IMG/VR virus record: IMGVR_UViG_3300017747_002675
Span: 15 to 64,014 of that record
Source of the DNA: a virus
Lineage: Duplodnaviria; Caudoviricetes
Direction: 5' to 3' (one strand)
DNA length: 64,000 bases
Made by a program: the position numbers and the translations under genes. Of the stretch, positions 10,271 to 64,000 are shown piece by piece. The number at the start of each line of letters is the position of its first letter. The stretch's first letter is position 1. The notes under the pieces are model-generated. The model saw only the letters and a program-made list of their open reading frames with translations. It was not told the DNA's origin and did no database searches.

Positions 10271-10287
10271 CAAAGAACAGCAGCTCG

Positions 10288-23573: not shown

Positions 23574-23585
23574 ACTTAGTTCTCA

Positions 23586-40075: not shown

Positions 40076-40657
40076 TTATGTCAACAATCGAAGAAGCGTG
40101 CTCATTTCAGAGGACACCTCTCCTTGAGAAAAGTAGTCTCCACCGGCCTTGTATGTCCGGAGTTTCTGGGTAACCTCGTCGGCATCTTTCTTGCCGATCT
40201 TCTTTTCTACTCGAGAAATCATCTCGTCCATTAGATTTTTAAGTGGCTCCGGCAGGTCACTGAAGCGCATCTTCTTAGTGTCAGAACCAAACGTGTCAGA
40301 TCCTGCCAAAGAATTAGCGATGGCGACACCAAGCAAACGTGCGGTTTCTCGTACGTTTTCTAAAGAATCAGCGTTCAAAGCCCCTGTGTCTAGCCGTGTA
40401 AGAACGGACCTCAACTGGTCGGCGGCCTTAGCGGCTGCCTTTAGACTTCCAGCCTCGTTTAGCTTTTCTATTTCTTCGGCTCTCGCTAGCGAGGCCTCTA
40501 GACCAGCTACCTGTAGGTTTTCCTTGATACGCGCGAGGACAGCCCTAAACTTTCCCTTAGCGTCTCGAGGCTGTGTCTTGCCAGACTCGTAGATCGTGTT
40601 CTCGCGGTCATATTCCTTAGAATACGAAACTGCTTTTGACTTTGGTTCTTCAGCCAT
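40076..40657 (-). CDS. Head-associated helical protein with RDAKGKF motif
   Basis: Overlaps the protease stop; lies between protease and capsid genes. Confidence 0.7.
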   Translation of the reverse strand: MAEEPKSKAVSYSKEYDRENTIYESGKTQPRDAKGKFRAVLARIKENLQVAGLEASLARAEEIEKLNEAGSLKAAAKAADQLRSVLTRLDTGALNADSLENVRETARLLGVAIANSLAGSDTFGSDTKKMRFSDLPEPLKNLMDEMISRVEKKIGKKDADEVTQKLRTYKAGGDYFSQGEVSSEMSTLLRLLT

Positions 40658-46444: not shown

Positions 46445-49400
46445 TTACGCACCTCCTGTGACGAAGAAATCTTGGATAGGGACACCGTACATGGTTGTAA
46501 TCCCAAATCTCTTCAGTCTTGCTATGATCGCTGCCTTGACTTCCTTACTGACGACAACCCTTGTGACTCCTTCGGGACCGAGGTGGCGTTTTACCATCAT
46601 CTCGTACATGTGAGGTGTTATTTCTGAGACGACGTTGTCGTGGCCGTCTCTTCTTCCGAACCTGTCGTACCTGTTGGCAAAGACCTCACCTCGTCTGAAG
46701 ATGTTCTTTGCGCTAAATTCAAGGTATACTTGCCTCTGTGCTATACCGTAGGCCGGCGCCTCTCCAGGGCCTAGATACACGTAATCTGCGCCTCCACTGT
46801 TCATGTCAGAGCTCGATGACATGCCTTCTACCTGTTTTCCAGATCTAAATCTCTCAAGTGTTGACTGTAGCCCTGCAACTATGCTTCCGTCCTCAGATCC
46901 AAGAAGTAGATTGATTACCTTTTCAGCGGTCTCTTCTGGCGTATTGGTGTCTGTAAAGACGCTGTGGTGAAAAGCGTCTACACCTGTCTCGTCCATGAAT
47001 AGCTCTACAGCTTCGTCTGATAACCGCATCTCGACAAGACCATTTTCTCCCACGAAGATCTCGATGTCGTCTGCGGTGACGCCGTAATAACTTTCTAAAG
47101 CCTCAAGAATCATTTCTCTGGCCTTACCAGAGGCGTTCTTCTTTGCATCGACATACTCGTAATCTTTTCCAAGATAGCTTTCTAACTCGCTTCTTTCCAG
47201 TGAAGTCATACGTTTGTCCCTCATAAATCCGCCAAAAATCGAGATCAATCTGTTCTCAGCAAGCGCTCGTATATCCTGCTTTCTTGCCGGTCGCGGATCG
47301 GTGACACCGGCGATCATGAGAGCGTCTCTAATGTCACTTTCCGACGGGTCTAGAGAACTAAACGTCACGTCAACAGCGCCATTTATTGCAAGAAAGTAGT
47401 TGTCGACTCCTGTTTTAGCGGTGATCGTAAACCTTCCGTCCGGGTCGGTGTACTTAAAAGTCTTGACGGCGTCTGGGCCGTAAGAATTCAGTGAACTTGC
47501 CTCGTCGTCAACGTTGACATACATATACCCGCCGGGTCCAAGAGTCGAGCGATCAATCTGCGCGCCCGAAGAGACCGACCAGTTGCCAGAAGAGTCGTTT
47601 GTGACGCGCTCGACCAGGCCTTCCATCGCCCATGAAGTTAGTTTGTACCGCATTGCTGCAACGGTGCTGTCTACGTCGTCGAGAGAGATGTCCTCGCTTG
47701 GTAGCCCTTCATTGGTCCCTACTATCGGCACCCATACAGGTTTAGAACCTGAGCCTCGCGAAAGTATCCACGAGAATTTTCCGCTATACAATGCTTTTTT
47801 GTAGAACGTGACGATGCCGTCCTCGACGTCAGGGCCGTCGACGAGCGAGTCTTCCTTAGATCGTTTTGTTCTTGTGACAGACCGAAGCGCTTCAAGTATC
47901 GGCTTAACGTTCTTAAAGTCGGACTCTCCATAGGACAGTGGAGCGGTGTCGATAAAGCGCGGCACTCCAACTCTGCTGATCTCGTCTCTTGGGTACGTTG
48001 AAAGCTTTTTGACGATCTCTTCTGGAGTGGCACGAAGAGCTTCATAAAGATCATTGTCGTATTCTGGCTTTCCGTCGCTAAGAACCTCGAAGACCTGGTA
48101 CTTCAAAAAGTTTTGTGCCATATCTTCGTCTTCTACGCCAAATGCTTCAAAATCTGCGTTAAGAATCGAGTCATATATCTGATCTATAGATTCTTTAAGA
48201 CTATTTTTATTAGGGAGCTCATTCCCGTGCGTATCTAGGCCAACTCGTATTCCACGCAGATATAGCACTGTTTCGTCGAGCATTCCTAGGCTAAGAAGAG
48301 TCGCGACTTCGGCTCTTAGTTCTGCGTCGTCTAGCTTTGCTACATGATTAAAAATCATGGCCGCGGTCGCCTCGCCGGTGCCCATGTCAAACCCGGATTT
48401 CATACGTCTCTTCACAGATTCGATGTCAACCGTTTTTGTTTTGTCTGATCCGCCGTCTCTGCCTTTTATATAAAACGCAAAGACTTTAGCTGGACTAGTG
48501 TAGGCAGTTGACCTCAACATCGGGTGCGGCGATAGATTCATGTTGTACGGTCTGCTCTGCGGTGGCACCTCGTAGCCTGCGCTTCCGATCTTTTCACCAC
48601 GCCCACGGAGTTGAACGTTTGACCCGGCCTCAAATGCTTCGCTCTCCGTGACGTTAAATCTTTCCATAAGATACTCGCGTCTTTTCTTTAACGTTGACGC
48701 TACAAACTTTGCAGTATCTGGGTCACTAATAGTAGTTGACACCAATGAGTCTATCTGCTCGGGCGTAATTCTTGCTACACGCATTACGCTGTTTCGTATC
48801 TGCTCGTCGGTCATATCGGCGAACAGCGCCGCAGACTGTGCATTCACACCGCGGTCTCGAAGCGAGTCAATCTCGGAGACTACGTCGCCGAAAGCGTCTC
48901 CCTTAGGTTCGCCCTGAGCGCGAAACATCAACGCTCCACCCGGGTCAACGCGCACAGGGCGACCGTCTTCTCCGATGATCATGTTGTCAAACGTCAAACC
49001 GGCAACGTCCCAGTTCGAAAGCCACGCGTCGACAGCAAATCCATCGCGTATTTCGTCGAGAACTTTTGCATCTCCAGAGTTTATAGCGTCTCGCAGTGTC
49101 TTTCCACTGGGGTCACTTTTAATGATCGGAGAATATGTCGCTATTCTTCCGTCTTTTTCGGCAACGCTGACAGATATAGATCTAATCCCAGCTAGGCCGT
49201 ACAGATCTGACGCAAGAGACTCGTTTTGGGCGTGCGTCTCAGATTTAGACATCTTGACGTAGTACTTGGATCCAACCTCGTCCTCGTATGTCCCGCCTTC
49301 GTTCGATCCTGCCTGACTACCGACCATCTTCCACGACGAGATGTCCGTTGACATGCCGATCGCTGCGTTCAGGCTCAGTCCGGTCACGCCCTGCATTGAT

Positions 49401-52243
49401 TGGCCAGAATACGTAAAATTAAGAGAGTTTGTTGTCTTTGAAAAAGTGACGCTATTTGTTGCGACCTCGTCAAAGTTCATTTCTGACACGTCGCACTGTA
49501 TGAACTCAGACTCTATAAGGCTCGGCTTCTTAAAAGTAGAATTTTTAAGATTGCTCAAAACAAAATCAGTACTTAGTATGTACCCGTTCTCAAATAGAGA
49601 GCTGGCCATATCGCACTCTTTAAACGTCGAGCCTTCTATCTTAGCCTGAAAGGTGTTGAATCCCTGCATACTGCAACCTTTGAAGTACGCCGAATCTACG
49701 CTCGTATACGACCCAAAATTAGTGAAATTAAGATTGCATTCCGTGAAAGTAACGTCTTTTAGACTAGCAAAGTTGAAGGTGCACCCCAAAAGCGAGCTGT
49801 CTGTGAACGTGGCCCCCTTAATTTTAGTTTCTCCGAAGAGAGAGTAGTCAAATTTAGTGCCTACGGCTCTTACGTCGTCTAATGTTGCGTTCGATAGATT
49901 GGCGTGTTTCAGTACCGCTCTATCTAAAGTCGCGCCACTAAGATCTACGTTCATGAGTTTCGCGCTATTTAACATGGCGTCGCTAAGATTGACACCTTTA
50001 AGATCCATGCCAGAAAGATCCATGCCTGAAAGCATCGCACCTGAAAGATCGGCGCCTGGCACTATCTCCTCAAGCGGAGGCACGGCTCCCTTCCATCTCG
50101 TGTTGTTTAGAACGTTTTCTGACACCGGCTCACCGGTAACGACGTCCGTGGGGACGTCGGGATCGACCAACGGCGGGCCCGACAGCGGATTGTACTTCTT
50201 CTCCGGTTCTGGTTTTTTCGTCTCTTTCTTTGGAGTAAATCTCTTAGAGTAAGAAACACCGGAACCTCCGTCAGACGTATCGTCGCGCGTTCCTTTCACG
50301 TACGCGTGATGCGCGAACCACGAGTCGGCGCCAGGCCAACGAACAAGATCGCCGGCAACAAGTCTGAACGGATCGTCAAAGCTCTCTTGACTTGCCTTGT
50401 TCACTAGCGCCTCAAGATCGTCAACCTGAGAGTCACTATCAAAGTACGGAGTCCCAAACGAGTCTGTGCGCTCGGTCCCCGAGCGCCACGCCTCGATAGC
50501 GTCTCGAGCGCCCTGAATGTGAGTCAGTCTATCGTCCTCTGTCTCCCAGTCAAAACCGTTGCGACCCCAGTGGGTTGCGCCGATCATCGTATCGTCCTTC
50601 GCGGTCTTTTTTACCTTCGACGAACCGAGTAGATTGACCTCGTCTACACCTGCTTCGCGATATAGAAACTCTGATCTCGTGTTGAAAACTGAGCCGATGC
50701 CCCGTGACTGATGCTCTGGTCGAAGAGAGAGAATATCGTGCTTTACAGCAAGATCTCCATTTGCCTTCATAAGCACAGTTCGACCAAAAGTACCGAGCGT
50801 TTCGCCTGTCTCGGCGTCTACGAAGTCTCCACTGAAGTACAGTTGATGCTCGATGTCTCCACCATACGCGCCTGAAGTATCTAGATCTGCAAAAAACCAA
50901 CCGGCGCCGTCTTCAGGCATCTCAGCGAGCTCGATGCGGATGTCTTTGCCGTTTTTGTCTTTGAAAACGGCCTTATCGAACGACTCCAGGAGATGTTGTC
51001 TAGTCTTTGCGGCACGCTCTTCCTTCGTCGCTATGCCAGGATTTCGCATGACGTCGCCGATCGACTTGAACGCGTCTCTCTGTTCGTCGGTCACCGACTG
51101 TGCCGCAGACAGCGCCGTGTCTATGCCCGCTGTTTCTGACTTTGCCGGGCTCACTGGCTTGATGGGCTTCTTTTCTCCTTGAATAAACTCGAGAGCTTCC
51201 TTAGCGTCTGCCTCTGCGCTTTCAAGGTCAGCCGCGATCAGCGACTGAACCTGGGCCCAGCTTCTAATGCCTTCAAAGCCCTCGGGGAAAATCTGATCAC
51301 CTTTGTCTGCCCAGCCGTCTGGTTCGGCGTCGTCTGCTGTATAGAAGTTAGGTCTGTGAACGTCCCACGAGTTTGAAGAAAAGGGGTCGTTTTCTTGCTC
51401 TTTTGGTATCCGGACAAAGTACCCGTCCTTAGACCTAAATACACTGTAAGGATGCTTCCCTTGCTCTATCTCTTCCCATTCGGTTGGTGTATCGATGATC
51501 TTGACATCTGCCGCGTCGACAAACGAGTCTTCCTTCTCAAAATCAACCTGGTCAAGATCAACGTTCGGAGCGTCTTCAAACGCCTCGTCGCTAAGAATCG
51601 CCTTGGCGGCAGTACCTTTTGTCGACGGAAATACGTAGATTCCCTTTGGTAGACCACCCATCGGGTTATCAACCTGAACCTCGATGTCGTCGTCGCCAGA
51701 CGACCCGACTACCTTGCCTGAGACGGCAGAGAATGACCCGTCAAGCCCGCGAATGGACACGGTAAACCCGCCGCCCATTTCAGCGAATCGGCCACGCCTG
51801 TCACGTCGCTGGACCTTCGCCCGGGCTCTACGCGCGGCTACCGAGTTACCTCCTAGGAACGATAAAGCACCTGCTACGAGCGCTTCTCGATCATCCTCCG
51901 AGTCGTCAGTTTCGCCGTCGCCGTCTTCCGGCGTATACATCGCCCGCTCGGCGGCTGTCAGAGGGCGAATGCGGTAAAAAATGCCGTTGCTTGAGAAGTA
52001 CGCCTCACCTGTTCCAGAGCTGTATTTCAATGATTTACCGTTGTCAAGGTTATATAGCATGAAACGATCGACAGCGACGATCTCGACGGCCGGTCGCTGG
52101 CCTTTACTGAGTTGCTCCGGCTGCGAGTAGTCAAACACTCGTTCAATTATTCTTGTCGAGACAACTTTGCCACCGTCTCGCATGGCGTCTAGTGCTACCT
52201 TGCTGTTAAACAGGTCGTATTGTGATAGCTTATTCTTTGCCAT
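46445..52243 (-). CDS. 1,932-aa multidomain head-locus protein (GNAT, pentapeptide repeats, HipA/PI3K-like kinase, putative H-Y-E ADP-ribosyltransferase)
   Basis: RDRRGRF; PEHQSRGIGS; ADLSG/AMLSG pentapeptides; GSNEGG..YYVK..NE.LA..DAWLSNWD..RVDPG; GLQSTLERF..GGADYVYL..YEMMVK. Confidence 0.8.
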   Translation of the reverse strand: MAKNKLSQYDLFNSKVALDAMRDGGKVVSTRIIERVFDYSQPEQLSKGQRPAVEIVAVDRFMLYNLDNGKSLKYSSGTGEAYFSSNGIFYRIRPLTAAERAMYTPEDGDGETDDSEDDREALVAGALSFLGGNSVAARRARAKVQRRDRRGRFAEMGGGFTVSIRGLDGSFSAVSGKVVGSSGDDDIEVQVDNPMGGLPKGIYVFPSTKGTAAKAILSDEAFEDAPNVDLDQVDFEKEDSFVDAADVKIIDTPTEWEEIEQGKHPYSVFRSKDGYFVRIPKEQENDPFSSNSWDVHRPNFYTADDAEPDGWADKGDQIFPEGFEGIRSWAQVQSLIAADLESAEADAKEALEFIQGEKKPIKPVSPAKSETAGIDTALSAAQSVTDEQRDAFKSIGDVMRNPGIATKEERAAKTRQHLLESFDKAVFKDKNGKDIRIELAEMPEDGAGWFFADLDTSGAYGGDIEHQLYFSGDFVDAETGETLGTFGRTVLMKANGDLAVKHDILSLRPEHQSRGIGSVFNTRSEFLYREAGVDEVNLLGSSKVKKTAKDDTMIGATHWGRNGFDWETEDDRLTHIQGARDAIEAWRSGTERTDSFGTPYFDSDSQVDDLEALVNKASQESFDDPFRLVAGDLVRWPGADSWFAHHAYVKGTRDDTSDGGSGVSYSKRFTPKKETKKPEPEKKYNPLSGPPLVDPDVPTDVVTGEPVSENVLNNTRWKGAVPPLEEIVPGADLSGAMLSGMDLSGMDLKGVNLSDAMLNSAKLMNVDLSGATLDRAVLKHANLSNATLDDVRAVGTKFDYSLFGETKIKGATFTDSSLLGCTFNFASLKDVTFTECNLNFTNFGSYTSVDSAYFKGCSMQGFNTFQAKIEGSTFKECDMASSLFENGYILSTDFVLSNLKNSTFKKPSLIESEFIQCDVSEMNFDEVATNSVTFSKTTNSLNFTYSGQSMQGVTGLSLNAAIGMSTDISSWKMVGSQAGSNEGGTYEDEVGSKYYVKMSKSETHAQNESLASDLYGLAGIRSISVSVAEKDGRIATYSPIIKSDPSGKTLRDAINSGDAKVLDEIRDGFAVDAWLSNWDVAGLTFDNMIIGEDGRPVRVDPGGALMFRAQGEPKGDAFGDVVSEIDSLRDRGVNAQSAALFADMTDEQIRNSVMRVARITPEQIDSLVSTTISDPDTAKFVASTLKKRREYLMERFNVTESEAFEAGSNVQLRGRGEKIGSAGYEVPPQSRPYNMNLSPHPMLRSTAYTSPAKVFAFYIKGRDGGSDKTKTVDIESVKRRMKSGFDMGTGEATAAMIFNHVAKLDDAELRAEVATLLSLGMLDETVLYLRGIRVGLDTHGNELPNKNSLKESIDQIYDSILNADFEAFGVEDEDMAQNFLKYQVFEVLSDGKPEYDNDLYEALRATPEEIVKKLSTYPRDEISRVGVPRFIDTAPLSYGESDFKNVKPILEALRSVTRTKRSKEDSLVDGPDVEDGIVTFYKKALYSGKFSWILSRGSGSKPVWVPIVGTNEGLPSEDISLDDVDSTVAAMRYKLTSWAMEGLVERVTNDSSGNWSVSSGAQIDRSTLGPGGYMYVNVDDEASSLNSYGPDAVKTFKYTDPDGRFTITAKTGVDNYFLAINGAVDVTFSSLDPSESDIRDALMIAGVTDPRPARKQDIRALAENRLISIFGGFMRDKRMTSLERSELESYLGKDYEYVDAKKNASGKAREMILEALESYYGVTADDIEIFVGENGLVEMRLSDEAVELFMDETGVDAFHHSVFTDTNTPEETAEKVINLLLGSEDGSIVAGLQSTLERFRSGKQVEGMSSSSDMNSGGADYVYLGPGEAPAYGIAQRQVYLEFSAKNIFRRGEVFANRYDRFGRRDGHDNVVSEITPHMYEMMVKRHLGPEGVTRVVVSKEVKAAIIARLKRFGITTMYGVPIQDFFVTGGA
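49400..50062 (-). repeat. Pentapeptide repeat coding region
   Basis: ADLSG AMLSG MDLSG MDLKG VNLSD AMLNS AKLMN VDLSG ATLDR.. Confidence 0.85.
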
Positions 52244-52247: not shown

Positions 52248-55200
52248 TCATCCTACCCAGAACGGGTTTGACCTGTCGCCTTTACGGAACTTACTTTTAG
52301 TCGTTGCAGGCCCGCCTAGCAGCGCTGCTCGCGCCTCTGACATCAGGCCCATTCCACTGAGCTGAGAAAAGATTGCGAGACGCAACTGCGGCGGAATGTC
52401 TGTCTTAAGCAAGTCAATAAGCCCAAAGACGCCCTGCTTCTGTAGCTTTGGATCGCTACTCTTGGCTTTTTTCAAGAAATCATCAAACACAGGTTTGTAG
52501 AACGCCTCTCCACTTCCAGTGGGGGCTTCAGCTCCGGCCTTGCCGTATCTACCGTATCTTCCATACACTACAGCGAAGTCAGATATTGATCCGTCTTCAA
52601 TCATCTTTTCAAGATTCTCGATCGCCTTCGGGTTTAAAGCTCTTCCTGGCTGTCTAAACTCACCTTTTACGTACTTCTTATGAGCCACTATTTTATGAGG
52701 CTTGCCGTTGCGGCGCTGCAGCGTGATCAACGTTCCAGTACCTTTCTCGATAGCTATGATGCTGTGATCGGGATTGCTTGCTAGCCCGTACTCCTCAGCA
52801 ATAGTCATCGTTCCGGCTTCGTTTGGAACATTTAATGCGCCACCTGCGTACGGAGGGAGCATCTTACGCTCCTTGAGCCTGTCCATAATTTTAGCTATTG
52901 CCTCTGCCTTGCTTACAAGATCGTCACCAGTTTTCCACTCGTCTGGGTCGACTTCGTTCCCAAATAGACGCACAAAATCACGAACAGGCACGCCGTTGAT
53001 CTCCGTTACGCCTCTCTTATCTAGCTCCTTGAGTATGAAATTTCTTAGTTCGGCGCCGACATAGATATTTGACATAGCACTATTATCAAGATGGCGCTTC
53101 AACATGAGCTCATAGCCTTCAGGTTTGATGTGACCGACAGGGTCGTTGTGAACTCTTCCGCCAAAGTAGTCTTCTTGGTTTGCCCATAGGTCAAGGCGCG
53201 TAAGAACCTCTACTGGGTCATAAAAGATAAACACGTTGTCGTCGTCGTCGTGTATCAGCTCACCTTTCTGTGCAGTTCGGTGCTGGTCGTATCCGACCAT
53301 TGTTAGATACACGTAATCGGCGCCTCCAGTGCTCATATCAGACTCTGATGATCCACCCATGTACTGCAGACCTAGATCAAAACGCTCTTGAGTAGAAAGA
53401 AGACCTAGACCAAACTCGTTTGCAATAACGTCAACAACAGTCGCGGCTCTTTCTTCTACAGTCAAACTTCCGAGTGACAGAGCGTGGCTAAGACCTGGAA
53501 GGTTTCTTTGGTCTATGATCTTCTGCGCGACGTCCCTAGGGATCTTCATCTCGATAAGCCCGTCCTCACCAACACCCACCGTCACGTCGTCTGCCGTAAC
53601 GCCAAGCTTGCGTTTAATATCGTTCAAAACTTTTAGTCGTGCTGGCCCTGTTAGGTTCAACGCCGGGTCGGAAACTCCACCAAACAACGAGATTAACTTG
53701 TTCTCCGCAAGAACTTTAAGATCTTTCTTTGTCATCGGTCTTGGATCGGTGACTCCTGCAGCTCTTAAGGCCTCGGCGATCTCTTCGTCGCTCGGGTCCA
53801 AAGACGAGAACACTATTTCGACCTTGTTGTCTACGGTTGACCACTCGTGGTTGTCTTTTATACCAACCTCGATTCCTGAGCTCGGGTCGCTCTCGAACAC
53901 CTTCACTACAAAAGGTTTGCCGTTGACCTCTCCGTCGTACCTACGAAGCACACCGGTCTGGGTTGACGTTAGCTTAGAAAATTCGCTTTCAACTCTTGCA
54001 ATTCCGGTCGTCTTATCGATAGACTTACGCCTAAACGATATGACATCTGGGCCAAACATAGTTTTCCATCGTGATTTTTTATTAGCGACAACGCTCTTCG
54101 CGTCATTTCTCTTAAGAGCGTCTGCAGCCCAAGACGTGAGCTTAAATCTTGCGACAAGAACCGCTGACTTTTCGTCGTCTCCCTCCTTGGTAAAGGTGAT
54201 TCTGCCGTCTTCGACGTCATCACCGTCGATAAGAGAATCGATTATTGGACGTGCGCTGTCGGTGAGATCGTTGATCGCGTCGCGTATTGACGGTACGGCG
54301 TCAAAATCAGTTTCATCGTACGATAGGGGACTGTCGTCGACGATCTTTTCAACACCTGACCCACGGACCGCTCTCTGCTTTCTTTCTCCGACGATATCGG
54401 CAAGATCGTCTATACTCTTTTTCGCTATATCTTTGAAAGCTTTCTTAACGCCTTCGTCGTTTTGTAGCGCGCTATTGAGATCTTGCACGTATGAGCCCGT
54501 TGCTGATGTTCTAGGAATGCTTAGGTCTGCCCCTGTCGAAGTTCTGTACACAAAATCAGAAGAGTCGATTATGCCCTGAAAGTCCCCTTCTCTCACATCT
54601 ATAATAGCTTTATCAATCACGCTTCTAGCGTCTCCACGGGCCTCTCTCTGCGCGGTTTTTAGCCAGTGCATTCCTTCTTCTACGCGTCCAGCAAGTATCA
54701 AGCCGTAGCCGACTGCCAATACGTCGTATACTTTTTCATCCGCAAGAAGACTATTTATCTCGTCAGCGGCAGTGTCGGGGTCGTATGGTCTATCTGACGA
54801 GTCAAGAACTGAGATGCTTAGCGCGTCACCGGAATCTTCGTCGTAGAATGAGAATAGAAAAGCACTGCGCTGTTGGTTCACGAAGTCCGGTGTATATCTA
54901 AACAAACCATCGCCTTCGTCGAAGTTCTTGATGTCTTCTTCAGACGGCGCCTGCGGAGCGTCAGCGGGGGTACCGGCCTCTGCTTCCTGCACTCTCTGGT
55001 TTACTACATCGGCGAGATCAGGCTTCGACTGCTCAACTACGGCGAGGCGCACTGACATAACAGTGCCATCATCCGACTGGCTCTTAGCTACAACCCTAAA
55101 GGTCGTGTTTCTATCGATAAGAAATTCCTGCTCTTCTGAGAATTCAAGTATGTCTTCGCCGTTGAGATACCCCTGCACATAGATGCCTGTTGTTCCCGCC

Positions 55201-58200
55201 GGGGCGTATATCTCAAGGCGAAAATAATCGCTCGGAATATCGTCCTCTGAAGACGTCGAAGTAAAGGCAGCGTCGGTGACCAAATCTCCCACCTCGTACG
55301 CTCTTATCACTTCAACAATGTCTTCAGGCACCATTCTATAGAAAACTGCGTCCTTAGGCAGCTTAGGCGCTTTCTCCATTAGCTTATCGATTTTGTCAAT
55401 TTCATCTATGACCGTACCTAGCGGTTGAGATGAGATATTTCCACTGCGAAGAAAACCGTTTATCGACGTGAAGCCAGAGCCTTGGTATGATCTAAGACCT
55501 AAAGACTCTTCTAGCCCTTGGTCAGATGTTTCGTTTGTGTCTGGGTCGACAAGAACAAATCCCTGTTCTTCGTATAGATCAGACATCGCAGATTCAAAGT
55601 CCCATCCCGGAGTATCGACCTGCCAGTCCGGTTCAATATTCGCGGCGTCGACGTCGGCCTCGTCATCTTTTGACAGACCGGGCGCGTCTTCTATAGGTCT
55701 TGGGGCTTCGACGCTTTCATCTCCGTTGTCAACCGCGAGGACGACAGTATCGTAGGTATATTGCTTTTTGGGCATACCAGTGACCGGGTCGGGGACGGTC
55801 ATTCCGCGCTCGTCTAGGACGTCAGGACCTTCAACGGTGGCATTCTGGGTAACTACAAACTTAGTCCCGGCAGGGAACGAAAAATCTAGACCTTCATACG
55901 GGTCGTGAGACTCAGAAAGACTCTTAATCAACGCTTCTTTGTCGACTGCAATATCGAGCAACGCTTGAGGTATCTCTACTGGTTTTGGCTTGCCGTGAAA
56001 GACGACATCCGTGCCCGGCGCGGCCTGGAATTTGACAAGTAGAACATTTTCACCTTCAATGGCTCTTTGTACGTCTCCCCGATAGTCGTGTGAAGTTCGT
56101 ATAGGCTCTTCGCTGACAAACGTCTTACCAAGTTTCAACTTACCTATGCCAAGAAACGCGCCCGGCTCCCTAGCAATGCTGGTAACCACAAATCCGCTGA
56201 CTCCAAGTTTACCAGGGTTGTTGTCCAGTTCAGGAGAGTTATCAGCTTCAGGAGCCTCGGCTGTGGCCTTCGAGGACGACTCGTCTTTTTGAGTCACAGG
56301 CGCCTTAGTTTTCTTGAGCTTAACCTTGTGTCTTTTCTCGTCTTCAATATATTCAACAGACACGACCTCAAACGTGCCTGACGCGATAACCTCACCTTCA
56401 TCCCAGTTAGACACTTTAGATATATCTACACCGTCAACGTCTGCACCACTAACTTCGAGAGTGATATTGCCGAACTCGAAGGTTGCCTCTTCATCCTTAG
56501 AAAACGATCGCGGGGGGATAGATACTACAGCACCTTTTCTTAAAAAATCTTTCGTCAGATCCGTGTTTTTAATCCCTCTATATATCTTCTTTTTATGCGG
56601 AGAACGCTGGGACAGTCGAGAAAGCAGACGATAATATGCGCCAGCTATAGACGGCTCTTGCCCACCTATCTGCTCGTCGCCTCTAGCAAGATTCAGCTCA
56701 GATCTAACGACATCAGCATACGACAGAGGCATACCGTACTTTTTAGCAAACTCTACGACATCTTGCAGTGACGACGGTTCTTGGTTCTTGTATAAAGCAC
56801 CGCCAATTTCTCTTTCAACGTTCCCAAAACCCTCTATAATGCCACCGTCAAGAAAAGAAGATAGTGCCATTAGAGCTCTGTATGCTTCTCTCTCTTCAGG
56901 GTTGTTTGACCTTGCGAACTCAAGGAACTCGCCCAGAAGTTGATGAACTGCACCGGCGTCTTCTTTAATCTTCTTAGAAATTCTTTCAACTAAATCGTTG
57001 AAAGGCTTGCTTGTCTCGTCTGGGTTTTTCTCAAGAAAATCATTTATCAAGGACAAAGTTACTTGGGCAACCGGTGCCGACATCATTGCTGACTTAAGCT
57101 TTTCTTCATAGGTTAGCTCTTCATCTTCATTGAAGAGCTCGCCGTCCGGTTCTATGTCTTTAAGAATTTTGGAGGCCTCGGCTGTGGCCCCCGAGGGGGC
57201 CTCACCTTTTGGGGTATCAGTCCTTGATTCCTCATCGCCTGACCACGCATCCGCCTCAGATCGGGCCTCCACGTTCTCTCTGAGCGCCTCCGTTGTACCA
57301 GCCGCAGGTGCACCGCCACCGTCCTCGGGAGCGACGTACGGACGGGTGCCAAGACCTCCGTCACCGTCTCCACCCTTAGCCTCCTCAAGCACCTTAAGCT
57401 GCTCGTCGAGCTTCTTAGGCTTCTTGTCTTCGGAGGTGGTACCGTTGTCGATCCACGGTGAGTTGTCGTCGCCATCGTGAATCAACGTCAGTGTCTTGTT
57501 GCTTCTTACGCTGATATGGCGTCTCGGTCCCCAGCTCTTTTCGCTGACCTTGTCGGGGTCACGGTGATCGATGTCCTGCTTAAAGTAGACGTAGCCCCAG
57601 TCGTCACCGTCGACCTTGTAGCGAAGGATCGTTCCGGCATACCCCCACTTGTCGCGGGCACGCATACCAGGCTTGATGAACACGCCTTTCTTATCGAAGC
57701 CTTGCATGTTTCCTTCAGGCGGCAACCCCTTGCCGAGAACCTGACCGGTCTTTGCCGAGCCGTCGTAGAATCTTCTGGCATCTCGAGCGCCGTCGGCAAG
57801 GCCGTCGTACATCTGCTTTTGCCATTTTTCGGGGAACTTCAGCCCTCGCATTCTTTCTTCAAACTCAGTAAGAGCAGCGATCGTTTCTTCGATTGAAGCC
57901 TCGCCGTTTCGCTGCTTTTCTAAGATGTCGATGAGAGCACGGATCTCCTTAGCGTACTTTCTTTCAGGCTTGTCTCCGTTTGTTTCGATCTCATCGGCTT
58001 CTTCGTTGAGCTCGTTGATGTAGTCAGCGATCTTAGCCGCGTCGTCCATGTCAAACGACTCGCCAGGCGCGGGCTCCTCTGTTACGACGTCGACGTCCTG
58101 ATTTCTTTCATCAGACATCGATGGAGCGACAAACTCTTCTGGAGCGATCTCGTTTGGCGCCTCTGGAGTTCCAGACATGCCAGGCTCCGGATCGGGCTCT

Positions 58201-61200
58201 GGCGACGAGACCGATGTCTCGACCGGCCCGGGTGGCGGAGGCGGAATGATGTCGCCGGCGTCTGGCGACGGTGGCGGCGGTGGGACTTCGCCTTCTGGAG
58301 TGTTCGGCGACTCGTCAGCGTCCGTAGTTTTGTCGTACACCCACGCAAGCGAGCCAATGTCGAGCTCCTTCTTCGCGCGAGTAACGGCGACGTAGTTCAG
58401 CTTCAACTCTTCTGGAGACGGCAGCACCTCGATTTCTTCTTCGGATTCCTCGTCGTATACAAACTTTGGACCCCAGAAGTCTCCACCGATGCGAACGCGA
58501 TCCCACTCAAGGCCCTTTGCACGGTGTGCGCTCGTGACGACGACATCGATCTTGTCTCCGCCGCCTCCACCCATTCCTTCGCGAAGCTGCTTTAGTGTCG
58601 CAAGACGGTCGTTATCGGACTTAATCGACTTGATCCACCGCTTACGCTCCGCGTCCCACTTGAAGCCGAGCTTCTTAGCTGCGTCCTTGTTGTTGAACAA
58701 TTTTTCCCCGGTGAGAGAAACGCTGTCGCCAACAACGACGTAGTCAACACCGTCGATGATCTTACCTTTTGAGCCGGTACGGGCAACGTCGATTGTAAGT
58801 TCGGGAAGATCTCCACCGCCGCCGACGCCAAGCCCATCTTCGCTGCTGCTGTAGATCTTGAGCTTCGACAACATGTCATCGACGCCGTTGAATCCAATGT
58901 CGTCGATCAACTTAATGAACTTACCAACCTTGCGTGACGCTTCTTCATCAGCAAGAGCCTTTAAGAGCTCGTCCCATGAAGAATACGGAGCAAGCTCATC
59001 GTGCATCTTACTCGGCTTCGGGCCTTCGCCCTTGAGGTACCTTGCGGAGTCGTTGAACGACTGAAGATCGTCCTTGAAGTTCTTTGCTACGCCGACGACG
59101 CGGCCACGCTCGAACTCGGCAAAGATCTCAGAGATCGCGCCACTGTTTGTTCTTACAAGAACAGCCTGCGCGTCTTCCATGGAGCCTGGCTCGACGATTA
59201 CTCCGTCGGGTCCGCCGCCCTCGATTCGGTTACGAGAGTTAAGCAGACTGAGGAATCTGTTGCCCATTCCTGCAATCTGCGGTCCGAATCTCCACGACTT
59301 CGTCAGCGGCAGTTCGAACTCTGCGTCAACCTGCTCGAGTTGGTCGACGGCGCCACGGAATCCGTAGATCGCCTGGTTGCTATCGCCAACGTAGATCTTT
59401 TGGATCTTCTGGTCGGCGATGACCTTACCAAGAACCGGGTTGATGTCCTGCGCCTCGTCAAAGAAGATGATGTCCGCAGGTCTAGAGAGTCCGGAGCCGC
59501 TCTTCGAAAGATCAGGGCGTGTCAACGCCCACATCTTTGTGATGTGACTGTTTGTGACTCGAAGAACGCCGTTAGGGCTCTTGAGGTCTGCCCAGATCTC
59601 GTTCGCCCAAGCGATCAACTGAGGCTCTGGTCTAAAGTCTACGAAGTGCTGCGGTCCGATCTCGTCGTCTGCGCTGTTTGCAAATTTATTGATAGCCGCG
59701 TTTAAGAGGCGAATGGTCTCGAACTGTGTAAGTTTGTAGGGCTTACCGTCGTAACCGACTCCTGAATGGCCGTCAATGCCGAAGTGTCTTCCGATGTCTT
59801 TCGCCTTGACGAGCGCCGTCTTGTTGCCCATCTTCTTCGTGATGTCATTCGACACCGCGCGATAGGCGATCGAGTCAGCGGTACGCGACTCGACGTTGTC
59901 AGGCATCGTAGCCTCGGCCTCGGTCTGGATCGACTTATTGAACGCGACGTAGATGATCTTCTTGTTCGGCTGCTCTCTCTTGAGCCGTCGTGCGATCAAC
60001 TTAAGCGTACTCGTCTTACCTGTACCGGCGAGCGCAAGAACCTTGGTGTCTTTGCCCGTTAGAACAGCGTCGACGATCGAGCGCTGCTGATCGGTCGGCG
60101 GGAACGCCTCGCCGGCGTACGGATCCTTGACGTCCTTGCCGTCGCTCTCGGGCGAGTCGACGTCAATAGCGTCTGTCATCGGCGACGGGTTCGCCGTGTC
60201 TCCACCGGGTACGCCGTCGGGGTCTACAGGATCTGCGCCTTCCGTCGACGCTGCCTTGATGATGTCATCTAGCGGCGGGACCGAGCATGGGCCGTTTTCT
60301 TCTCCAACAGCGGCCGTCAAGCCGGCGCCACCGCAGTTCCATGCGGCGGCGATCGCCTTCTTCATCTCGTACTCGGCGAGATCCTGCTTGTACTGCTCGT
60401 ATGCGGCATCGTACTCGGCCTCGCGAAGTCTTTGTGCCTCAAACGCGCCGTCCGAGTCAAGCAGACCGGTCGAAGTGTCGGGGTTGCCGATGGCTCGCTC
60501 AAGCATCGCGTCGACGATGTTCGCCGATGCCTCTGCGTCTGCGTCTGCGCGGTGCCAGTTGTTAAGCTCGACGCCGAGATACTCGGCGACCGGGCCAAGA
60601 CTGTTCGACGCTCTACGCTTGCCGTCCTTGCCGACCTGCATCGGACCGTCTGGGTTCTTTACCGACCACTTTGGCAACGTACCTGCCGCGAGGTCCTTCG
60701 AGTCGATCGTGCCGGCGATGTCAAGCTCGAGACCTTGCTCGCCAAGTGTTCTCTCAAGAACCTCACGATCGAACGGGACGTACTGTCCACCAAGAATCGG
60801 GCTCTCGCCGGCGAACTTGATGAACATCTCGTGAGCTTCTCTCATCGAGACCTGCTGAGCAAGCCACTCGTCTGTGACGGGCTCGCCGTCTTCTCTCTTC
60901 AGGTTGTCTCTCGACCACTCAGAAAGTCTGAACTCTGGGTTCATGTAGACGTTCATGCGGTCGATGACCTTGCCGTCCTTGACCTTGACTGCACCGAGCT
61001 GCACTGGTCTGTTCAGCTCGCCGTCACCGGGTGTCGTGCTAAGACCGGTAGTCTCATAGTCGAAGTAGACGATCTCCGTCCCACGGATAACTTCCGCGGC
61101 CTCTTCCCATGTCTCGACGCCGGAGAGGAGCTCCTGCATTCTTCCACTGAACGCTCCAGGGGTTGGCTTTCTTGGCTTTTCGGGGCGATGCAGCGCCGGC

Positions 61201-64000
61201 TCGTCGCCCATCGGCGGAACGGTTCCGCCACGAGAAACGTCGATGACCGTCGTCGCGTTCCACTCCTTACGCTGGAGCTCGTGACCCGGGTAGTAACCCT
61301 GAACGCTTACCTTGCCGTTAGGAGTGCTTTCGTCGATGAACACCTTGTCGATGACGAACGAGTCTGTTGCGGTGATGTCGCCGGGGAGCAGGTCCTGCGC
61401 CTGGTAACCCATCGACTCGGTCAACGGGACCGGGTCTGGGAACATCTCCGGATCATCAACTCCCTCTGGGATATTGAAACGATCAAGGATCGCGCGACGA
61501 CGGGCCTTCAACTTGTCCTTAAGAACCTTGCGGTCTGACTCACTCTTGACGTTCGCGTCAATGATCGAGTCGATCATCGACGGAGTGAGATCACGAAGAC
61601 GCATAGCGGCATTTCTCAATTGCTCGTCGGTAGTGTCGGCGAACACGCTCGCGGCCTGTGGGTTGATGTCCATGTCGCGCATCGAGTCGAGATCGCGGTC
61701 GTCGTAGCTGAAACGATCGTCGCCCTTGGCCGTGCCCCGTGCTCTCCACATCAACGACGCGCCCGGATCAACGCGGATCGGGTCGCCGTTTCCATCGGAG
61801 ATGATGTTCGTGGAGTCGTCGTACAGGTAGCCGATGACGTCGTAGTTTGCGAGCCACGCGTCGATCACGAAGTGATCACGGATCTTGTCTAGGTATTCCT
61901 GATCGCCGTCGTTGTACGGACCGAAGAAACCCATCGGGTCGGAGTTCGGGACGATCGGAGAGACGAGACGTAGCTCGCCGCTTTCATCGCCGTACGCCGT
62001 CTCCGCGGCGGGCACTCCGAGCGCCTCGTACAACAGCGCTGCTAGGGTCTCATTGTCCGCGTGAGATTGTGAACGCGGAATCTTGACGTAGTATTCATTA
62101 CCGTCAGCGTCGCGGTAGAAGCCGCCAGGATTGGAGCCCGTTCCTCCGCCGATCTTTGTCCAGTTCTCGATGCCCGAGTACGTTCTAGTCTTAGGCGGCC
62201 ACGACATCGGCGGCTCGGTGGCAGCTTCAGGGGCCGGCATCGCCTGCGTCGCTCGGCTGGGTGGCTCAACTCTACGGACCTGAACGACGAACTCGTCGTC
62301 CTTGCCGACCCTACCGCGGTTTTTACGAACTGAGACGACCTCAAACTGCCCGAAACCGAAGACCTCGCTTTCGCCTTCAAACGGCGAGATCGACGATACG
62401 TCGACCGAGTCAACGTCACCTGGTAGACCCTCGAAGATAACTCTTCTTCTTCCGTCGCGCACTGGCATGAACATCTGCGAGGCTATCGACCCATCGGAGA
62501 TGTTCATCGTCGTCCACGAGCGAGCGTCCATGTAAAACCTCGAACCCTCGGTAGTGTACATGGAAAAGTCGATGCTGTCTTCGTTGACGCCGATCACTCT
62601 GTAGAGAGTCTGCTCGTTCGGCTTCGCCGCCGCACTCATCAATCGATAGAACGCCGCGCCAGAAGTCTGGGCGTCGAGCGTGTCGGTGCCGTCGATGATC
62701 TTACCGCGGCTTTCCATGAACTCAGGGTAGCCGCCGTATTCTCTAACTAGCTCATCGTACGCGTCGAACGCGGCATCGACACCAAGCTTGCGGCTCAGCG
62801 CGTCGACAAGTCTGTACCTATAACCTGACTCATCTCGAGCGTACTGTTCAAAGTCTTCTCGGTCTATCGTCTCCATGATGTCGCCGCCGTCGAGAGACAT
62901 GAGTATGCCCCAGTAGCCTCTAAACGCCTGGCGATCGTCTGGGTCGTCGCTGATGGATAGATCGTAGAGATCTTCAAACAGCGACTCGACATCGTCTCCG
63001 TTTTCAAAAGCGTTTGAAATGCGCTCGGCGACGCTCTTGATAGACTCGTTCTGTTCGTCATAGTCGGCAAGAGCGTCGCGAACAGTCGCGGTGCGCTCTA
63101 CTCTACTAATCTGTGTGCTGAGTCTAGCTGCGCGCGAAATTTCTTCGTTGCGCGAGGTGGTAGGAATCTCCGTGCGCAACGGGCTCGTCGAAGGCTCGAT
63201 TCTCATGTCATCGTTCTGCTGAGCGATCCGCTCGACGTTTGTCTGCTCGCGATCTGGGTCAAGTCTCGAGTCATACAGTCCGGCAAGAATCATTGGCGCA
63301 TCGAGCCCGGACAACTGAAGTGCTTCGTAGATCGCCTCGGCCTTGACACGCTCCGGCCCACGATTAAAGTCGAGGAATCCGAAACCTGTCGCGTCCTCGT
63401 CATCGGTCGGCAGAACGGCGTCACGAAGACCCTTAGCAAGTTCTTCCTGACTGAACTGAGATGCAAGGATCTCAGGGTCGTCGGTGTAGTCATCGCTAGC
63501 CTGATCGGTGCGTCCGGTGGGTTCGTAGATGTCAAAGATCTGTGGCTTGTATGCGCCTTCAGGAGTCTCAAACATCGAGTCAAACTCTTCGTTGAAGAAC
63601 TCGAGGTCCGGTGTCATCTCTTCAGCTTCAGGCGCAGCAAACTCGATCTTGTCAAGAGCGAACGTACGATCTTCGCCGTCACCTTCGCTGAACCCGACGA
63701 GATTCGTGTTTCCGTTCTTTGGATTGAAGTACATGCGCTGCGGGCGAACGGTACGCTCTTTCCCGTTGTACATGAACTTGATCTTGTCGCCGGAGTTGAT
63801 CGCGGCGTCGATCTGATCGCGGATCTCTGTTATCCCACCTGGAGCGATGTCACGAGGTTCACCTGGTCCGCCAGCAATCGCGCTGTTGACATAGTCGATA
63901 GCGTCTGGGTCATCACCAATGAACTCGCCGATATCGCTGCTGACGTCGTTGTACGCAGGTCCGCCGAGTCTGTTGTCGGTGTATACGTACTCCTTTGAAC
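52248..64000 (-). CDS. Giant (>3,900 aa, 5' partial) multi-enzyme head-locus protein: WYL, ART, kinase, DEDDh exonuclease, UvrD-like helicase, further ARTs, H-Y-E module
   Basis: The frame stays open from 63773 to the window end (..IRDQIDAAINSGDKIKF-MYNGKERTVRP..). Motifs: FDYETTG / WHRADAD, ALAGTGKT / FFDEAQD / YVAVTRAK, YR..STS..EQE. Confidence 0.88.
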   Translation of the reverse strand, partial: SKEYVYTDNRLGGPAYNDVSSDIGEFIGDDPDAIDYVNSAIAGGPGEPRDIAPGGITEIRDQIDAAINSGDKIKFMYNGKERTVRPQRMYFNPKNGNTNLVGFSEGDGEDRTFALDKIEFAAPEAEEMTPDLEFFNEEFDSMFETPEGAYKPQIFDIYEPTGRTDQASDDYTDDPEILASQFSQEELAKGLRDAVLPTDDEDATGFGFLDFNRGPERVKAEAIYEALQLSGLDAPMILAGLYDSRLDPDREQTNVERIAQQNDDMRIEPSTSPLRTEIPTTSRNEEISRAARLSTQISRVERTATVRDALADYDEQNESIKSVAERISNAFENGDDVESLFEDLYDLSISDDPDDRQAFRGYWGILMSLDGGDIMETIDREDFEQYARDESGYRYRLVDALSRKLGVDAAFDAYDELVREYGGYPEFMESRGKIIDGTDTLDAQTSGAAFYRLMSAAAKPNEQTLYRVIGVNEDSIDFSMYTTEGSRFYMDARSWTTMNISDGSIASQMFMPVRDGRRRVIFEGLPGDVDSVDVSSISPFEGESEVFGFGQFEVVSVRKNRGRVGKDDEFVVQVRRVEPPSRATQAMPAPEAATEPPMSWPPKTRTYSGIENWTKIGGGTGSNPGGFYRDADGNEYYVKIPRSQSHADNETLAALLYEALGVPAAETAYGDESGELRLVSPIVPNSDPMGFFGPYNDGDQEYLDKIRDHFVIDAWLANYDVIGYLYDDSTNIISDGNGDPIRVDPGASLMWRARGTAKGDDRFSYDDRDLDSMRDMDINPQAASVFADTTDEQLRNAAMRLRDLTPSMIDSIIDANVKSESDRKVLKDKLKARRRAILDRFNIPEGVDDPEMFPDPVPLTESMGYQAQDLLPGDITATDSFVIDKVFIDESTPNGKVSVQGYYPGHELQRKEWNATTVIDVSRGGTVPPMGDEPALHRPEKPRKPTPGAFSGRMQELLSGVETWEEAAEVIRGTEIVYFDYETTGLSTTPGDGELNRPVQLGAVKVKDGKVIDRMNVYMNPEFRLSEWSRDNLKREDGEPVTDEWLAQQVSMREAHEMFIKFAGESPILGGQYVPFDREVLERTLGEQGLELDIAGTIDSKDLAAGTLPKWSVKNPDGPMQVGKDGKRRASNSLGPVAEYLGVELNNWHRADADAEASANIVDAMLERAIGNPDTSTGLLDSDGAFEAQRLREAEYDAAYEQYKQDLAEYEMKKAIAAAWNCGGAGLTAAVGEENGPCSVPPLDDIIKAASTEGADPVDPDGVPGGDTANPSPMTDAIDVDSPESDGKDVKDPYAGEAFPPTDQQRSIVDAVLTGKDTKVLALAGTGKTSTLKLIARRLKREQPNKKIIYVAFNKSIQTEAEATMPDNVESRTADSIAYRAVSNDITKKMGNKTALVKAKDIGRHFGIDGHSGVGYDGKPYKLTQFETIRLLNAAINKFANSADDEIGPQHFVDFRPEPQLIAWANEIWADLKSPNGVLRVTNSHITKMWALTRPDLSKSGSGLSRPADIIFFDEAQDINPVLGKVIADQKIQKIYVGDSNQAIYGFRGAVDQLEQVDAEFELPLTKSWRFGPQIAGMGNRFLSLLNSRNRIEGGGPDGVIVEPGSMEDAQAVLVRTNSGAISEIFAEFERGRVVGVAKNFKDDLQSFNDSARYLKGEGPKPSKMHDELAPYSSWDELLKALADEEASRKVGKFIKLIDDIGFNGVDDMLSKLKIYSSSEDGLGVGGGGDLPELTIDVARTGSKGKIIDGVDYVVVGDSVSLTGEKLFNNKDAAKKLGFKWDAERKRWIKSIKSDNDRLATLKQLREGMGGGGGDKIDVVVTSAHRAKGLEWDRVRIGGDFWGPKFVYDEESEEEIEVLPSPEELKLNYVAVTRAKKELDIGSLAWVYDKTTDADESPNTPEGEVPPPPPSPDAGDIIPPPPPGPVETSVSSPEPDPEPGMSGTPEAPNEIAPEEFVAPSMSDERNQDVDVVTEEPAPGESFDMDDAAKIADYINELNEEADEIETNGDKPERKYAKEIRALIDILEKQRNGEASIEETIAALTEFEERMRGLKFPEKWQKQMYDGLADGARDARRFYDGSAKTGQVLGKGLPPEGNMQGFDKKGVFIKPGMRARDKWGYAGTILRYKVDGDDWGYVYFKQDIDHRDPDKVSEKSWGPRRHISVRSNKTLTLIHDGDDNSPWIDNGTTSEDKKPKKLDEQLKVLEEAKGGDGDGGLGTRPYVAPEDGGGAPAAGTTEALRENVEARSEADAWSGDEESRTDTPKGEAPSGATAEASKILKDIEPDGELFNEDEELTYEEKLKSAMMSAPVAQVTLSLINDFLEKNPDETSKPFNDLVERISKKIKEDAGAVHQLLGEFLEFARSNNPEEREAYRALMALSSFLDGGIIEGFGNVEREIGGALYKNQEPSSLQDVVEFAKKYGMPLSYADVVRSELNLARGDEQIGGQEPSIAGAYYRLLSRLSQRSPHKKKIYRGIKNTDLTKDFLRKGAVVSIPPRSFSKDEEATFEFGNITLEVSGADVDGVDISKVSNWDEGEVIASGTFEVVSVEYIEDEKRHKVKLKKTKAPVTQKDESSSKATAEAPEADNSPELDNNPGKLGVSGFVVTSIAREPGAFLGIGKLKLGKTFVSEEPIRTSHDYRGDVQRAIEGENVLLVKFQAAPGTDVVFHGKPKPVEIPQALLDIAVDKEALIKSLSESHDPYEGLDFSFPAGTKFVVTQNATVEGPDVLDERGMTVPDPVTGMPKKQYTYDTVVLAVDNGDESVEAPRPIEDAPGLSKDDEADVDAANIEPDWQVDTPGWDFESAMSDLYEEQGFVLVDPDTNETSDQGLEESLGLRSYQGSGFTSINGFLRSGNISSQPLGTVIDEIDKIDKLMEKAPKLPKDAVFYRMVPEDIVEVIRAYEVGDLVTDAAFTSTSSEDDIPSDYFRLEIYAPAGTTGIYVQGYLNGEDILEFSEEQEFLIDRNTTFRVVAKSQSDDGTVMSVRLAVVEQSKPDLADVVNQRVQEAEAGTPADAPQAPSEEDIKNFDEGDGLFRYTPDFVNQQRSAFLFSFYDEDSGDALSISVLDSSDRPYDPDTAADEINSLLADEKVYDVLAVGYGLILAGRVEEGMHWLKTAQREARGDARSVIDKAIIDVREGDFQGIIDSSDFVYRTSTGADLSIPRTSATGSYVQDLNSALQNDEGVKKAFKDIAKKSIDDLADIVGERKQRAVRGSGVEKIVDDSPLSYDETDFDAVPSIRDAINDLTDSARPIIDSLIDGDDVEDGRITFTKEGDDEKSAVLVARFKLTSWAADALKRNDAKSVVANKKSRWKTMFGPDVISFRRKSIDKTTGIARVESEFSKLTSTQTGVLRRYDGEVNGKPFVVKVFESDPSSGIEVGIKDNHEWSTVDNKVEIVFSSLDPSDEEIAEALRAAGVTDPRPMTKKDLKVLAENKLISLFGGVSDPALNLTGPARLKVLNDIKRKLGVTADDVTVGVGEDGLIEMKIPRDVAQKIIDQRNLPGLSHALSLGSLTVEERAATVVDVIANEFGLGLLSTQERFDLGLQYMGGSSESDMSTGGADYVYLTMVGYDQHRTAQKGELIHDDDDNVFIFYDPVEVLTRLDLWANQEDYFGGRVHNDPVGHIKPEGYELMLKRHLDNSAMSNIYVGAELRNFILKELDKRGVTEINGVPVRDFVRLFGNEVDPDEWKTGDDLVSKAEAIAKIMDRLKERKMLPPYAGGALNVPNEAGTMTIAEEYGLASNPDHSIIAIEKGTGTLITLQRRNGKPHKIVAHKKYVKGEFRQPGRALNPKAIENLEKMIEDGSISDFAVVYGRYGRYGKAGAEAPTGSGEAFYKPVFDDFLKKAKSSDPKLQKQGVFGLIDLLKTDIPPQLRLAIFSQLSGMGLMSEARAALLGGPATTKSKFRKGDRSNPFWVG

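Follow-up and report, generated by a model that had tools for sequence, protein, structure and literature searches.

The 64,000-nucleotide stretch of DNA analysed here (positions 15 to 64,014 of IMG/VR record IMGVR_UViG_3300017747_002675; hereafter the window) belongs to an uncultured freshwater actinobacterial siphovirus and carries, at its end, a gene for a giant protein of more than 3,900 residues. We are close to certain that the head operon here encodes a multi-enzyme protein of the polyvalent type, and we suggest on sequence grounds, with a probability of roughly 0.65, that it is packaged in the capsid and injected with the DNA. An original prediction, made from the letters alone, had read the gene as one uninterrupted frame encoding nine domains. 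Eight of the nine domain calls hold, one of them (a WYL domain) marginally, and a "degenerate" ADP-ribosyltransferase (ART) is the one that finds no support. The eight recognised domains include three R-S-ExE ADP-ribosyltransferases (ART1, ART2 and ART3), and all catalytic residues that could be checked are conserved.

The open reading frame (ORF) comprises 3,916 open codons and a stop, as the prediction of a single frame had it, and runs off the edge of the window. This edge lies 14 bases short of the end of the IMG/VR contig, whose completeness is ~48% according to CheckV. The ORF is 5'-truncated there, and the N-terminus is missing for the technical reason that the contig ends. We number the residues so that residue i begins at window position 63998-3(i-1). 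An independent assembly of the Joint Genome Institute (JGI) contains a relative of 4,641 residues, P0002, which is 93% identical over residues 44-2339 and extends 963 residues further N-terminally. The full gene has about 4,900 codons, and the ORF in the window is its 3'-terminal four fifths.

The giant reading frame is genuine and unbroken, and purifying selection acts on it. In the comparison with P0002, the ratio of non-synonymous to synonymous changes (pN/pS) is 0-0.49 in every 200-residue bin along the whole frame. An assembly chimera, which the original prediction had itself raised, is ruled out because Logan contigs from other runs, one of them from a different study, tile the whole gene at ≥99% identity, and the JGI assembly has the same domain order. 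The metagenomic source of the contig is what could recommend a chimera or a non-coding open frame, but with this tiling, a pN/pS well below 1 and more than 40 homologues, we regard that explanation as practically dismissed. The phage lineage recurs across many freshwater and lake samples. Six freshwater metagenome runs contain >90% of the words sampled from the stretch 54001-64000, and lake-water runs of 2020-2024 and four "fungus metagenome" runs contain ~50-58%; the listing comprises 20 runs from 17 studies, with no RNA run among them. No close DNA relatives were found among GenBank phages, and none in IMG/VR by peptide patterns.

The N-terminal half carries a WYL-like domain, an ART, a kinase, an exonuclease and a helicase, in the predicted order. 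The WYL-like domain stands at the predicted place with a Pfam score just under the cut-off; in P0002, which has extra copies, WYL reaches 39.5 bits in Pfam, and relatives carry 1-4 copies. Residues 440-860 were folded with AlphaFold2 from an alignment of 22 relatives (predicted local distance difference test, pLDDT, 83). The first 139 residues of this model, ART1, match HopU1 (Z 10.1), Tre1 (9.9) and SpvB (9.1) in VIA, and CDTa, C3 and iota toxin in Foldseek. R467, S494, E543 and E545 are invariant among 34 relatives, which together with the fold bears out the predicted ART, as one of the R-S-E type.

The kinase (model residues 166-406) has a predicted fold of the CtkA/PI4K/HipA type. Its best structural match is CtkA (Z 15.6, root-mean-square deviation (rmsd) 3.3, 208 aligned), followed by CotH (14.0), PI4KII-alpha (13.2), MavQ (12.0) and HipA (11.9), and K639, E650, D713, N718, D720 and D744 are invariant among 34 relatives. 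At the sequence level, Pfam gives no match to the kinase of the giant protein and weak PI3_PI4_kinase matches in relatives, and a PDB sequence search with this segment returned only a non-significant LepB match (E 0.8). An Actinocatenispora chromosome encodes a relative of the kinase within a protein of 5,337 residues that is annotated as ADP-ribosyltransferase. The calls of a DEDDh exonuclease and a UvrD-like helicase are confirmed by sequence matches: Pfam RNase_T at residues 977-1161 (E 2e-9) for the former, and Pfam UvrD and phrog_1967 at residues 1303-1881 (E 1.7e-80) for the latter, which is found in about half of the relatives.

Behind the helicase lies the predicted Pro-rich linker, and behind it ART2 and ART3. 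ART2 is a diverged paralogue of ART1; a profile built from ART1 finds it at E 2e-12 with its motifs in place, and its Pfam ART match is weak. ART3 is matched by Pfam ADPrib_exo_Tox (E 3e-15) and by Alt-like and VIP2-like PHROG families. Both ARTs had been predicted. The segment between them (residues 2603-2718), read as the degenerate ART, matches neither the ART1 nor the ART3 profile, nor anything in Pfam or the ESM Atlas, and is nearly private to the lineage.

The last predicted domain, an "H-Y-E module", proves to be a two-part C-terminal module with a DarT-like ART core. Its AlphaFold2 model is of good quality (pLDDT 86.5, predicted template modelling score 0.86) and shows two sub-domains. 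For the core (residues 3489-3685), Foldseek returns E. coli DarT1 (E 1e-4, probability 1.0), and the four best structural matches are all DarT (VIA Z 7.7, 7.5, 6.7 and 6.5; the next 4.7). The best of them aligns 151 residues at an rmsd of 3.6, a Z below 8 being middling when taken alone. H3505, R3539, Y3562 and E3630 are invariant or near-invariant in the family and lie on the expected strands. The catalytic residues of Thermus DarT are H13, R51, Y71 and E160 (PMC9967889); compared by spacing, the H-R-Y-E gaps are 34/23/68 in the core and 38/20/89 in Thermus DarT. R3539, which is invariant, would correspond to the DarT-specific catalytic Arg. The modelled module is DarT-like in fold and probably also in chemistry, but its sequence falls outside the curated DarT family. 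Pfam found nothing in 30 C-terminal-module sequences, and a PDB search with the profile of the module gave one short, unrelated match only.

The C-terminal module is widespread. A full HMMER scan of 1.8 billion cluster representatives gave 288 matches, almost always as the C-terminal end of a protein of 1.5-7 thousand residues. Modules of ~320 residues that seem to stand alone lie on 1-kb contigs and are pieces of larger genes. The neighbouring protein of 1,932 residues, the second giant, has a C-terminus 33% identical to residues 3210-3690, and its kinase is 42% identical to that of the giant protein.

The giant protein is not unique and belongs to a large family so far undescribed: 43 giant relatives of 2.3-6.5 thousand residues match its residues 100-860. 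For the end that is missing from the window, a tblastn search with the first 334 residues of P0002 returned only Actinomycetia phage DSL-LC01, whose 3,289-residue homologue was left unannotated in the DSL-LC01 paper, and an ESM Atlas look-up with the N-terminal 420 residues gave no usable match. The family acts as a cassette system, in which near-identical phages differ by whole enzyme cassettes. Synonymous divergence from P0002 is 0.01-0.05 in some blocks and 0.7-0.78 across the last 900 residues. The ART2 cassette (999 bases) is not in P0002, and related strains in two lake-water runs of two other studies have 60 bases instead. Strain variants in two lake-water runs also have a 96-base stretch at 62787-62884 swapped for 111 bases, and other relatives gain Nudix, KTSC, pentapeptide or extra ART domains.

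The genomic context of the family is constant. In all six metagenomic loci fetched (L005-L010) and in DSL-LC01, Arthrobacter phage Mimi and Microbacterium phage Pumpernickel, the order is portal, often a ferritin/Dps-like gene with DUF5824, the giant gene, sometimes a second giant, two small genes, a protease-like gene (~1,400 residues), a gene for a ~190-residue protein, and capsid; the terminase gene leads in loci that reach far enough. The original prediction had placed the giant gene upstream of the protease and capsid genes, in the slot of MuF-toxin fusions, and had proposed to look further out for the portal; both hold, the portal lying upstream of the giant gene in the relatives' loci.

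These loci share a signature segment of ~50 conserved residues around an R-D-x-x-G-[RK]-F core. It lies at ~residue 200 in every full-length giant, which accords with the RDxxGRF N-terminus that had been proposed as something to look for, and occurs also in second giants and other genes of the slot, at ~residue 360 of the protease-like protein, and N-terminally in the helical protein of ~190 residues, both in the window and in four of the loci. A profile built from the other loci only was run against 390 ORFs of the window and matched exactly three, the second giant (E 1.5e-23), the protease-like protein (5.7e-16) and the scaffold-like protein (1.7e-11), with the next at E 2.9. Mimi gp77 and gp79 and Pumpernickel gp82 have the core motif with Trp for Phe. 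The shared signature is our best evidence that the giants go the same way as scaffold and protease, from which we infer loading into the procapsid, and the segment is a candidate head-loading or processing signal.

In the model we favour, the giant protein would be made late, along with the head proteins. Its N-terminal part would dock it in the procapsid, with possible trimming by the head protease, and it would be ejected with the DNA like T4 Alt, P1 DarB or the 3,500-residue N4 virion RNA polymerase. Once it is inside the cell, host proteins would be modified by the arginine-type ARTs and the kinase, the exonuclease and helicase would act on nucleic acids or nucleotide signals, and the DarT-like domain would ADP-ribosylate bases of single-stranded DNA, most likely stalling host replication. 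One may speculate further that this is a separate cargo system of actinobacterial siphoviruses, in which a signature segment common to scaffold, protease and cargo loads half-megadalton enzyme arrays, each ending in an offensive DarT-like enzyme that ADP-ribosylates host DNA. We put this extended version forward tentatively and consider it possible but doubtful.

Several observations weigh against packaging and injection, or against parts of the model. The signature is not visible in the giant protein itself, whose N-terminal end is off the contig. In two relatives (L007 2638-5955 and L008 3324-6968) a frame of its own, which gene calling passed over, holds the N-terminal 1,100-1,200 residues with the signature. 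A third locus, L010, has its array split over two overlapping giant frames (7001-24308; 3,435 residues and >3,617 residues); all three cases could be true splits, frameshifts or sequencing errors. The MuF N-terminus that had been hoped for was not found by Pfam in full-length P0002, nor in DSL-LC01, Mimi gp77 or Pumpernickel gp82, and in the giant protein and P0002, Pfam at E up to 0.1 detected no MuF, metallopeptidase or polyvalent-marker family. To our knowledge, the sole precedent for passing a protein of this size (~520 kDa), here through a siphovirus tail, is the N4 polymerase, and N4 is a podovirus. We found no virion proteomics in the literature for Mimi, Racecar, Atuin, Pumpernickel, DSL-LC01 or any other relative. 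As to the C-terminal module, the Pfam DarT model PF14487 matches nothing on the contig up to E 1, the likeness being at the level of fold only, and the 64-kb contig, about 48% of a complete genome, has no gene for a DarG-like macrodomain or NADAR.

Another explanation is that the protein is an intracellular polyprotein of the late or middle phase, serving host takeover or DNA metabolism, which is never packaged and sits in the head operon incidentally. An exonuclease and a UvrD helicase are ordinary replication and repair activities, and the missing MuF domain and the lack of virion data on any relative leave room for this. However, all relatives examined have the gene at one fixed place between portal and protease, the giants share the signature segment only with the protease-like and scaffold-like proteins, and host-modifying ARTs made late would have little time to work. 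We consider such an unpackaged polyprotein unlikely. If it is packaged, it might still act in the capsid or on the phage genome, for example by DarT-like ADP-ribosylation of phage DNA against restriction, with helicase and exonuclease aiding packaging or ejection. A DNA substrate is what the DarT fold suggests, the contig showed no macrodomain or NADAR as antidote, and P1 DarB is a packaged enzyme that protects incoming DNA (PMC5512222). Yet the three arginine-type ARTs and the kinase are of types that modify proteins, which here would be those of the host, and the modification made by characterised DarT blocks replication (PMC9967889) and would harm the phage itself. We regard a role inside the capsid or on the phage genome as distinctly unlikely.

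The gain and loss of the ART2 cassette and the strongly diverged C-terminal third between near-identical strains are also what would be expected of a polymorphic toxin for conflict between bacteria or between phages (superinfection exclusion), in place of host takeover, and the Actinocatenispora chromosomal protein with the related kinase would fit such a role. Pfam, however, gave no secretion or immunity family, no small immunity gene was noted beside the gene, and the phage head-operon context is constant; a polymorphic toxin is very improbable in our view. Packaging and delivery into the host is the explanation that we prefer.

Polyvalent proteins, as defined by Iyer et al. 2017, have 2-15 domains, are ~35% phage-encoded and are predicted to be packaged and injected (PMC5512222). 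The claim that no described protein combines so many activities thus fails, and the eight domains of the giant protein fall within this range of effector domains. Like polyvalent proteins, the giant protein joins many unrelated enzyme domains in one giant phage polypeptide beside portal and packaging genes, with ARTs, kinases and helicases among the domains, cassette-like variability, and predicted packaging and injection. The differences concern the enzymes and the ends. Alt/VIP2 R-S-E ARTs are stated not to occur in genuine polyvalent proteins (PMC5512222), whereas the giant protein carries R-S-E ARTs. The polyvalent kinase is a truncated Ser/Thr/Tyr type from Verrucomicrobia/Bacteroidetes phages, and UvrD appears in that survey only in a Streptomyces plasmid protein (PMC5512222), while the giant phage protein has a CtkA/PI4K/HipA-like kinase and UvrD. 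Pfam scans of the giant protein and P0002 (E up to 0.1; a Pfam model was not confirmed to exist for each family) showed no zincin-like metallopeptidase, H-Y-D ART, large-polyvalent-protein domain or SNF2-methylase dyad. Unlike polyvalent proteins, the giant family has fixed ends of its own, the N-terminal signature segment and the C-terminal DarT-like module. Neither the 2022 survey by the same group (PMC9503650) nor its jumbo-phage survey (PMC7824862) mentions the giant family or a virion-borne DarT-like domain.

The DarT of DarTG (PDB 8baq, 7omu, 7omv and 7yk3) resembles the C-terminal core in fold, and the putative catalytic His, Arg, Tyr and Glu of the core lie at DarT-like spacing. Unlike DarT, the core lies outside the Pfam DarT model and ends a head-operon protein behind an extra sub-domain of 220 residues; no DarG partner for it was found on the contig, which is about 48% complete. 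DarTG is a host defence against phages, whereas the DarT-like module here is carried by a phage.

T4 Alt and the MuF-fused VIP2 ARTs of Microbacterium phages Percival and Goodman (PMC7302621, PMC9503650) are likewise R-S-E ARTs among head genes, and an ART is reported for only ~3% of siphoviruses (PMC9503650), the morphotype of the phage here. T4 Alt is packaged and injected and ADP-ribosylates host RNA polymerase, and it is to an Alt-like PHROG family that ART3 of the giant protein has one of its matches. These precedents carry one enzyme, compared with eight in the giant protein, and the giant family is without MuF and is not known to have a targeting peptide of the T4 type at its N-terminus. 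In T4, capsid targeting relies on a short N-terminal peptide that is cut by the prohead protease; the signature segment is internal and unrelated to it in sequence. Very large proteins that are, or are thought to be, carried in the capsid and delivered with the DNA include the N4 virion RNA polymerase, P1 DarB and a protein of >4,400 residues in cluster EK Microbacterium phages, described as "likely processed, and virion associated" (Jacobs-Sera et al. 2020, PMC7302621). Since these are that large, size alone does not exclude capsid cargo. They come from other morphotypes with other enzyme sets, and we found no sequence or domain relationship to them.

If packaging and injection are borne out, the enzyme kit that freshwater actinobacterial phages bring into the cell is larger than that of known polyvalent proteins and differs from it, and it includes the arginine-type ARTs reported absent from proteins of that type. 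A phage-borne DarT relative is of interest in that DarT is otherwise known as a bacterial anti-phage defence; an offensive DarT-like enzyme, if true, would turn this weapon on the host. The signature segment offers a concrete, testable candidate address tag for head loading, and cultured SEA-PHAGES relatives, Arthrobacter phage Mimi and Microbacterium phage Pumpernickel, carry giants with the same core motif. Since its hosts are probably Actinomycetia that abound in lakes, the family may matter there.

Table 1. Features of the giant protein and its locus (window positions unless a locus is named; residues of the protein concerned; last column, positions in the original prediction)
Feature	Position	Strand	Residues	Details	Original prediction
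Giant ORF	52248..63998	-	1-3916	5'-truncated	52248-64000
WYL-like domain	63642..63818	-	61-119	Pfam 21.4 bits, cut-off 21.8; marginal	~63650-63820
Family-conserved region	62679..63611	-	130-440	no Pfam match; covered by 34-40 of 43 relatives	
ART1, R-S-ExE ADP-ribosyltransferase	62265..62654	-	449-578	R467, S494-x-T496, E543-x-E545	62320-62610
Atypical kinase, CtkA/PI4K/HipA type	61464..62186	-	605-845	K639, D713, N718, D744	61480-62175
DEDDh (RNase T/DnaQ-like) exonuclease	60480..61076	-	975-1173	D980, E982, D1077, H1149, D1154	60500-61080
Cys-containing exonuclease-helicase junction	60279..60371	-	1210-1240	family-conserved; sole [LIVM]-T-A-[AGS] site of the giant protein	
UvrD-type superfamily 1 (SF1) helicase	58356..60110	-	1297-1881	Walker A K1328, motif II D1514/E1515	58360-60110
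Pro-rich linker	58224..58292	-	1903-1925	1906-1923 by residue index	~58230-58290
Family-conserved module	57399..58151	-	1950-2200	conservation across relatives	
ART2 cassette	56231..57231	-	~2257-2589	from strain comparison	
ART2 core, diverged paralogue of ART1	56337..56639	-	2454-2554	R2474, S2498-x-S2500, E2534-x-E2536	56345-56590
Predicted "degenerate ART"	55845..56192	-	2603-2718	nearly private to lineage	55845-56190
ART3, VIP2/C3-type ADP-ribosyltransferase	55017..55529	-	2824-2994	R2888, S2914-T-S2916, E2956-Q-E2958	55080-55500
C-terminal module, N-terminal alpha/beta sub-domain	53655..54326	-	3225-3448	no clear structural relative, best Z ~4.5	52960-54345 (module)
C-terminal module, DarT-like ADP-ribosyltransferase core	52944..53534	-	3489-3685	predicted; H3505, R3539, Y3562, E3630	52960-54345 (module)
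C-terminal tail	52251..52901	-	3700-3916	poorly conserved	
Second giant protein	46445..52243	-	1,932 in all	directly downstream; signature segment, pentapeptide repeats, kinase, DarT-like C-terminal module	
Signature segment in second giant	51692-51889	-			
Protease-like head protein	40650..45101	-	1,483 in all	signature segment ~345-399	
Signature segment in protease-like protein	43908-44072	-			
Helical scaffold-like protein	40076..40657	-	193 in all	signature segment near N-terminus	
Signature segment in scaffold-like protein	40502-40636	-			
Major capsid protein	38115..39953	-		78% identical to capsid of Actinomycetia phage DSL-LC01	
Ferritin/Dps-like gene	L005 4458-5792; L006 5767-6996; L007 931-2683; L009 3295-4891; L010 5727-7001				

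Among the neighbours, the pentapeptide repeats of the second giant extend over ~200 residues and are of the DNA-mimic type. The ferritin/Dps-like gene between portal and giant gene, usually with DUF5824 fused to it or next in line, falls outside the window, past its end. Ferritin-like proteins are classic encapsulin cargo, and encapsulins share the HK97 fold; by this analogy, the ferritin/Dps-like protein could be a further capsid cargo.

The capsid protein is ~54% identical to the capsids of 190-kb Microbacterium and Arthrobacter phages. Its residues 1-230 (39260-39953, minus strand) form a conserved helical N-terminus followed by a long acidic spacer, with a conserved Thr-Ala-Ala-Ala at residues 183-186, just before the part common to other phages. 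In many giants a similar site, of the form [LIVM]-T-A-[AGS], precedes the signature segment by ~20-25 residues, and one lies at residue 1227 of the giant protein, in the Cys-containing junction. As a linker cleavage motif this pattern was rejected: the giant protein has 1 site compared with 0.74 expected, which is chance level and gives no support to a general cutting of the linkers. A role as a maturation cleavage motif is possible from the sequence, the count being no higher than chance. The 254-residue protein encoded between the second giant and the protease-like gene (45101-45865, minus strand) has a Cys-rich C-terminal half and a Thr-Ala-Ala-Ala-Glu-Asp-Gly stretch identical to that at the capsid boundary; the DSL-LC01 gene at its position is annotated as "high potential iron-sulfur protein".

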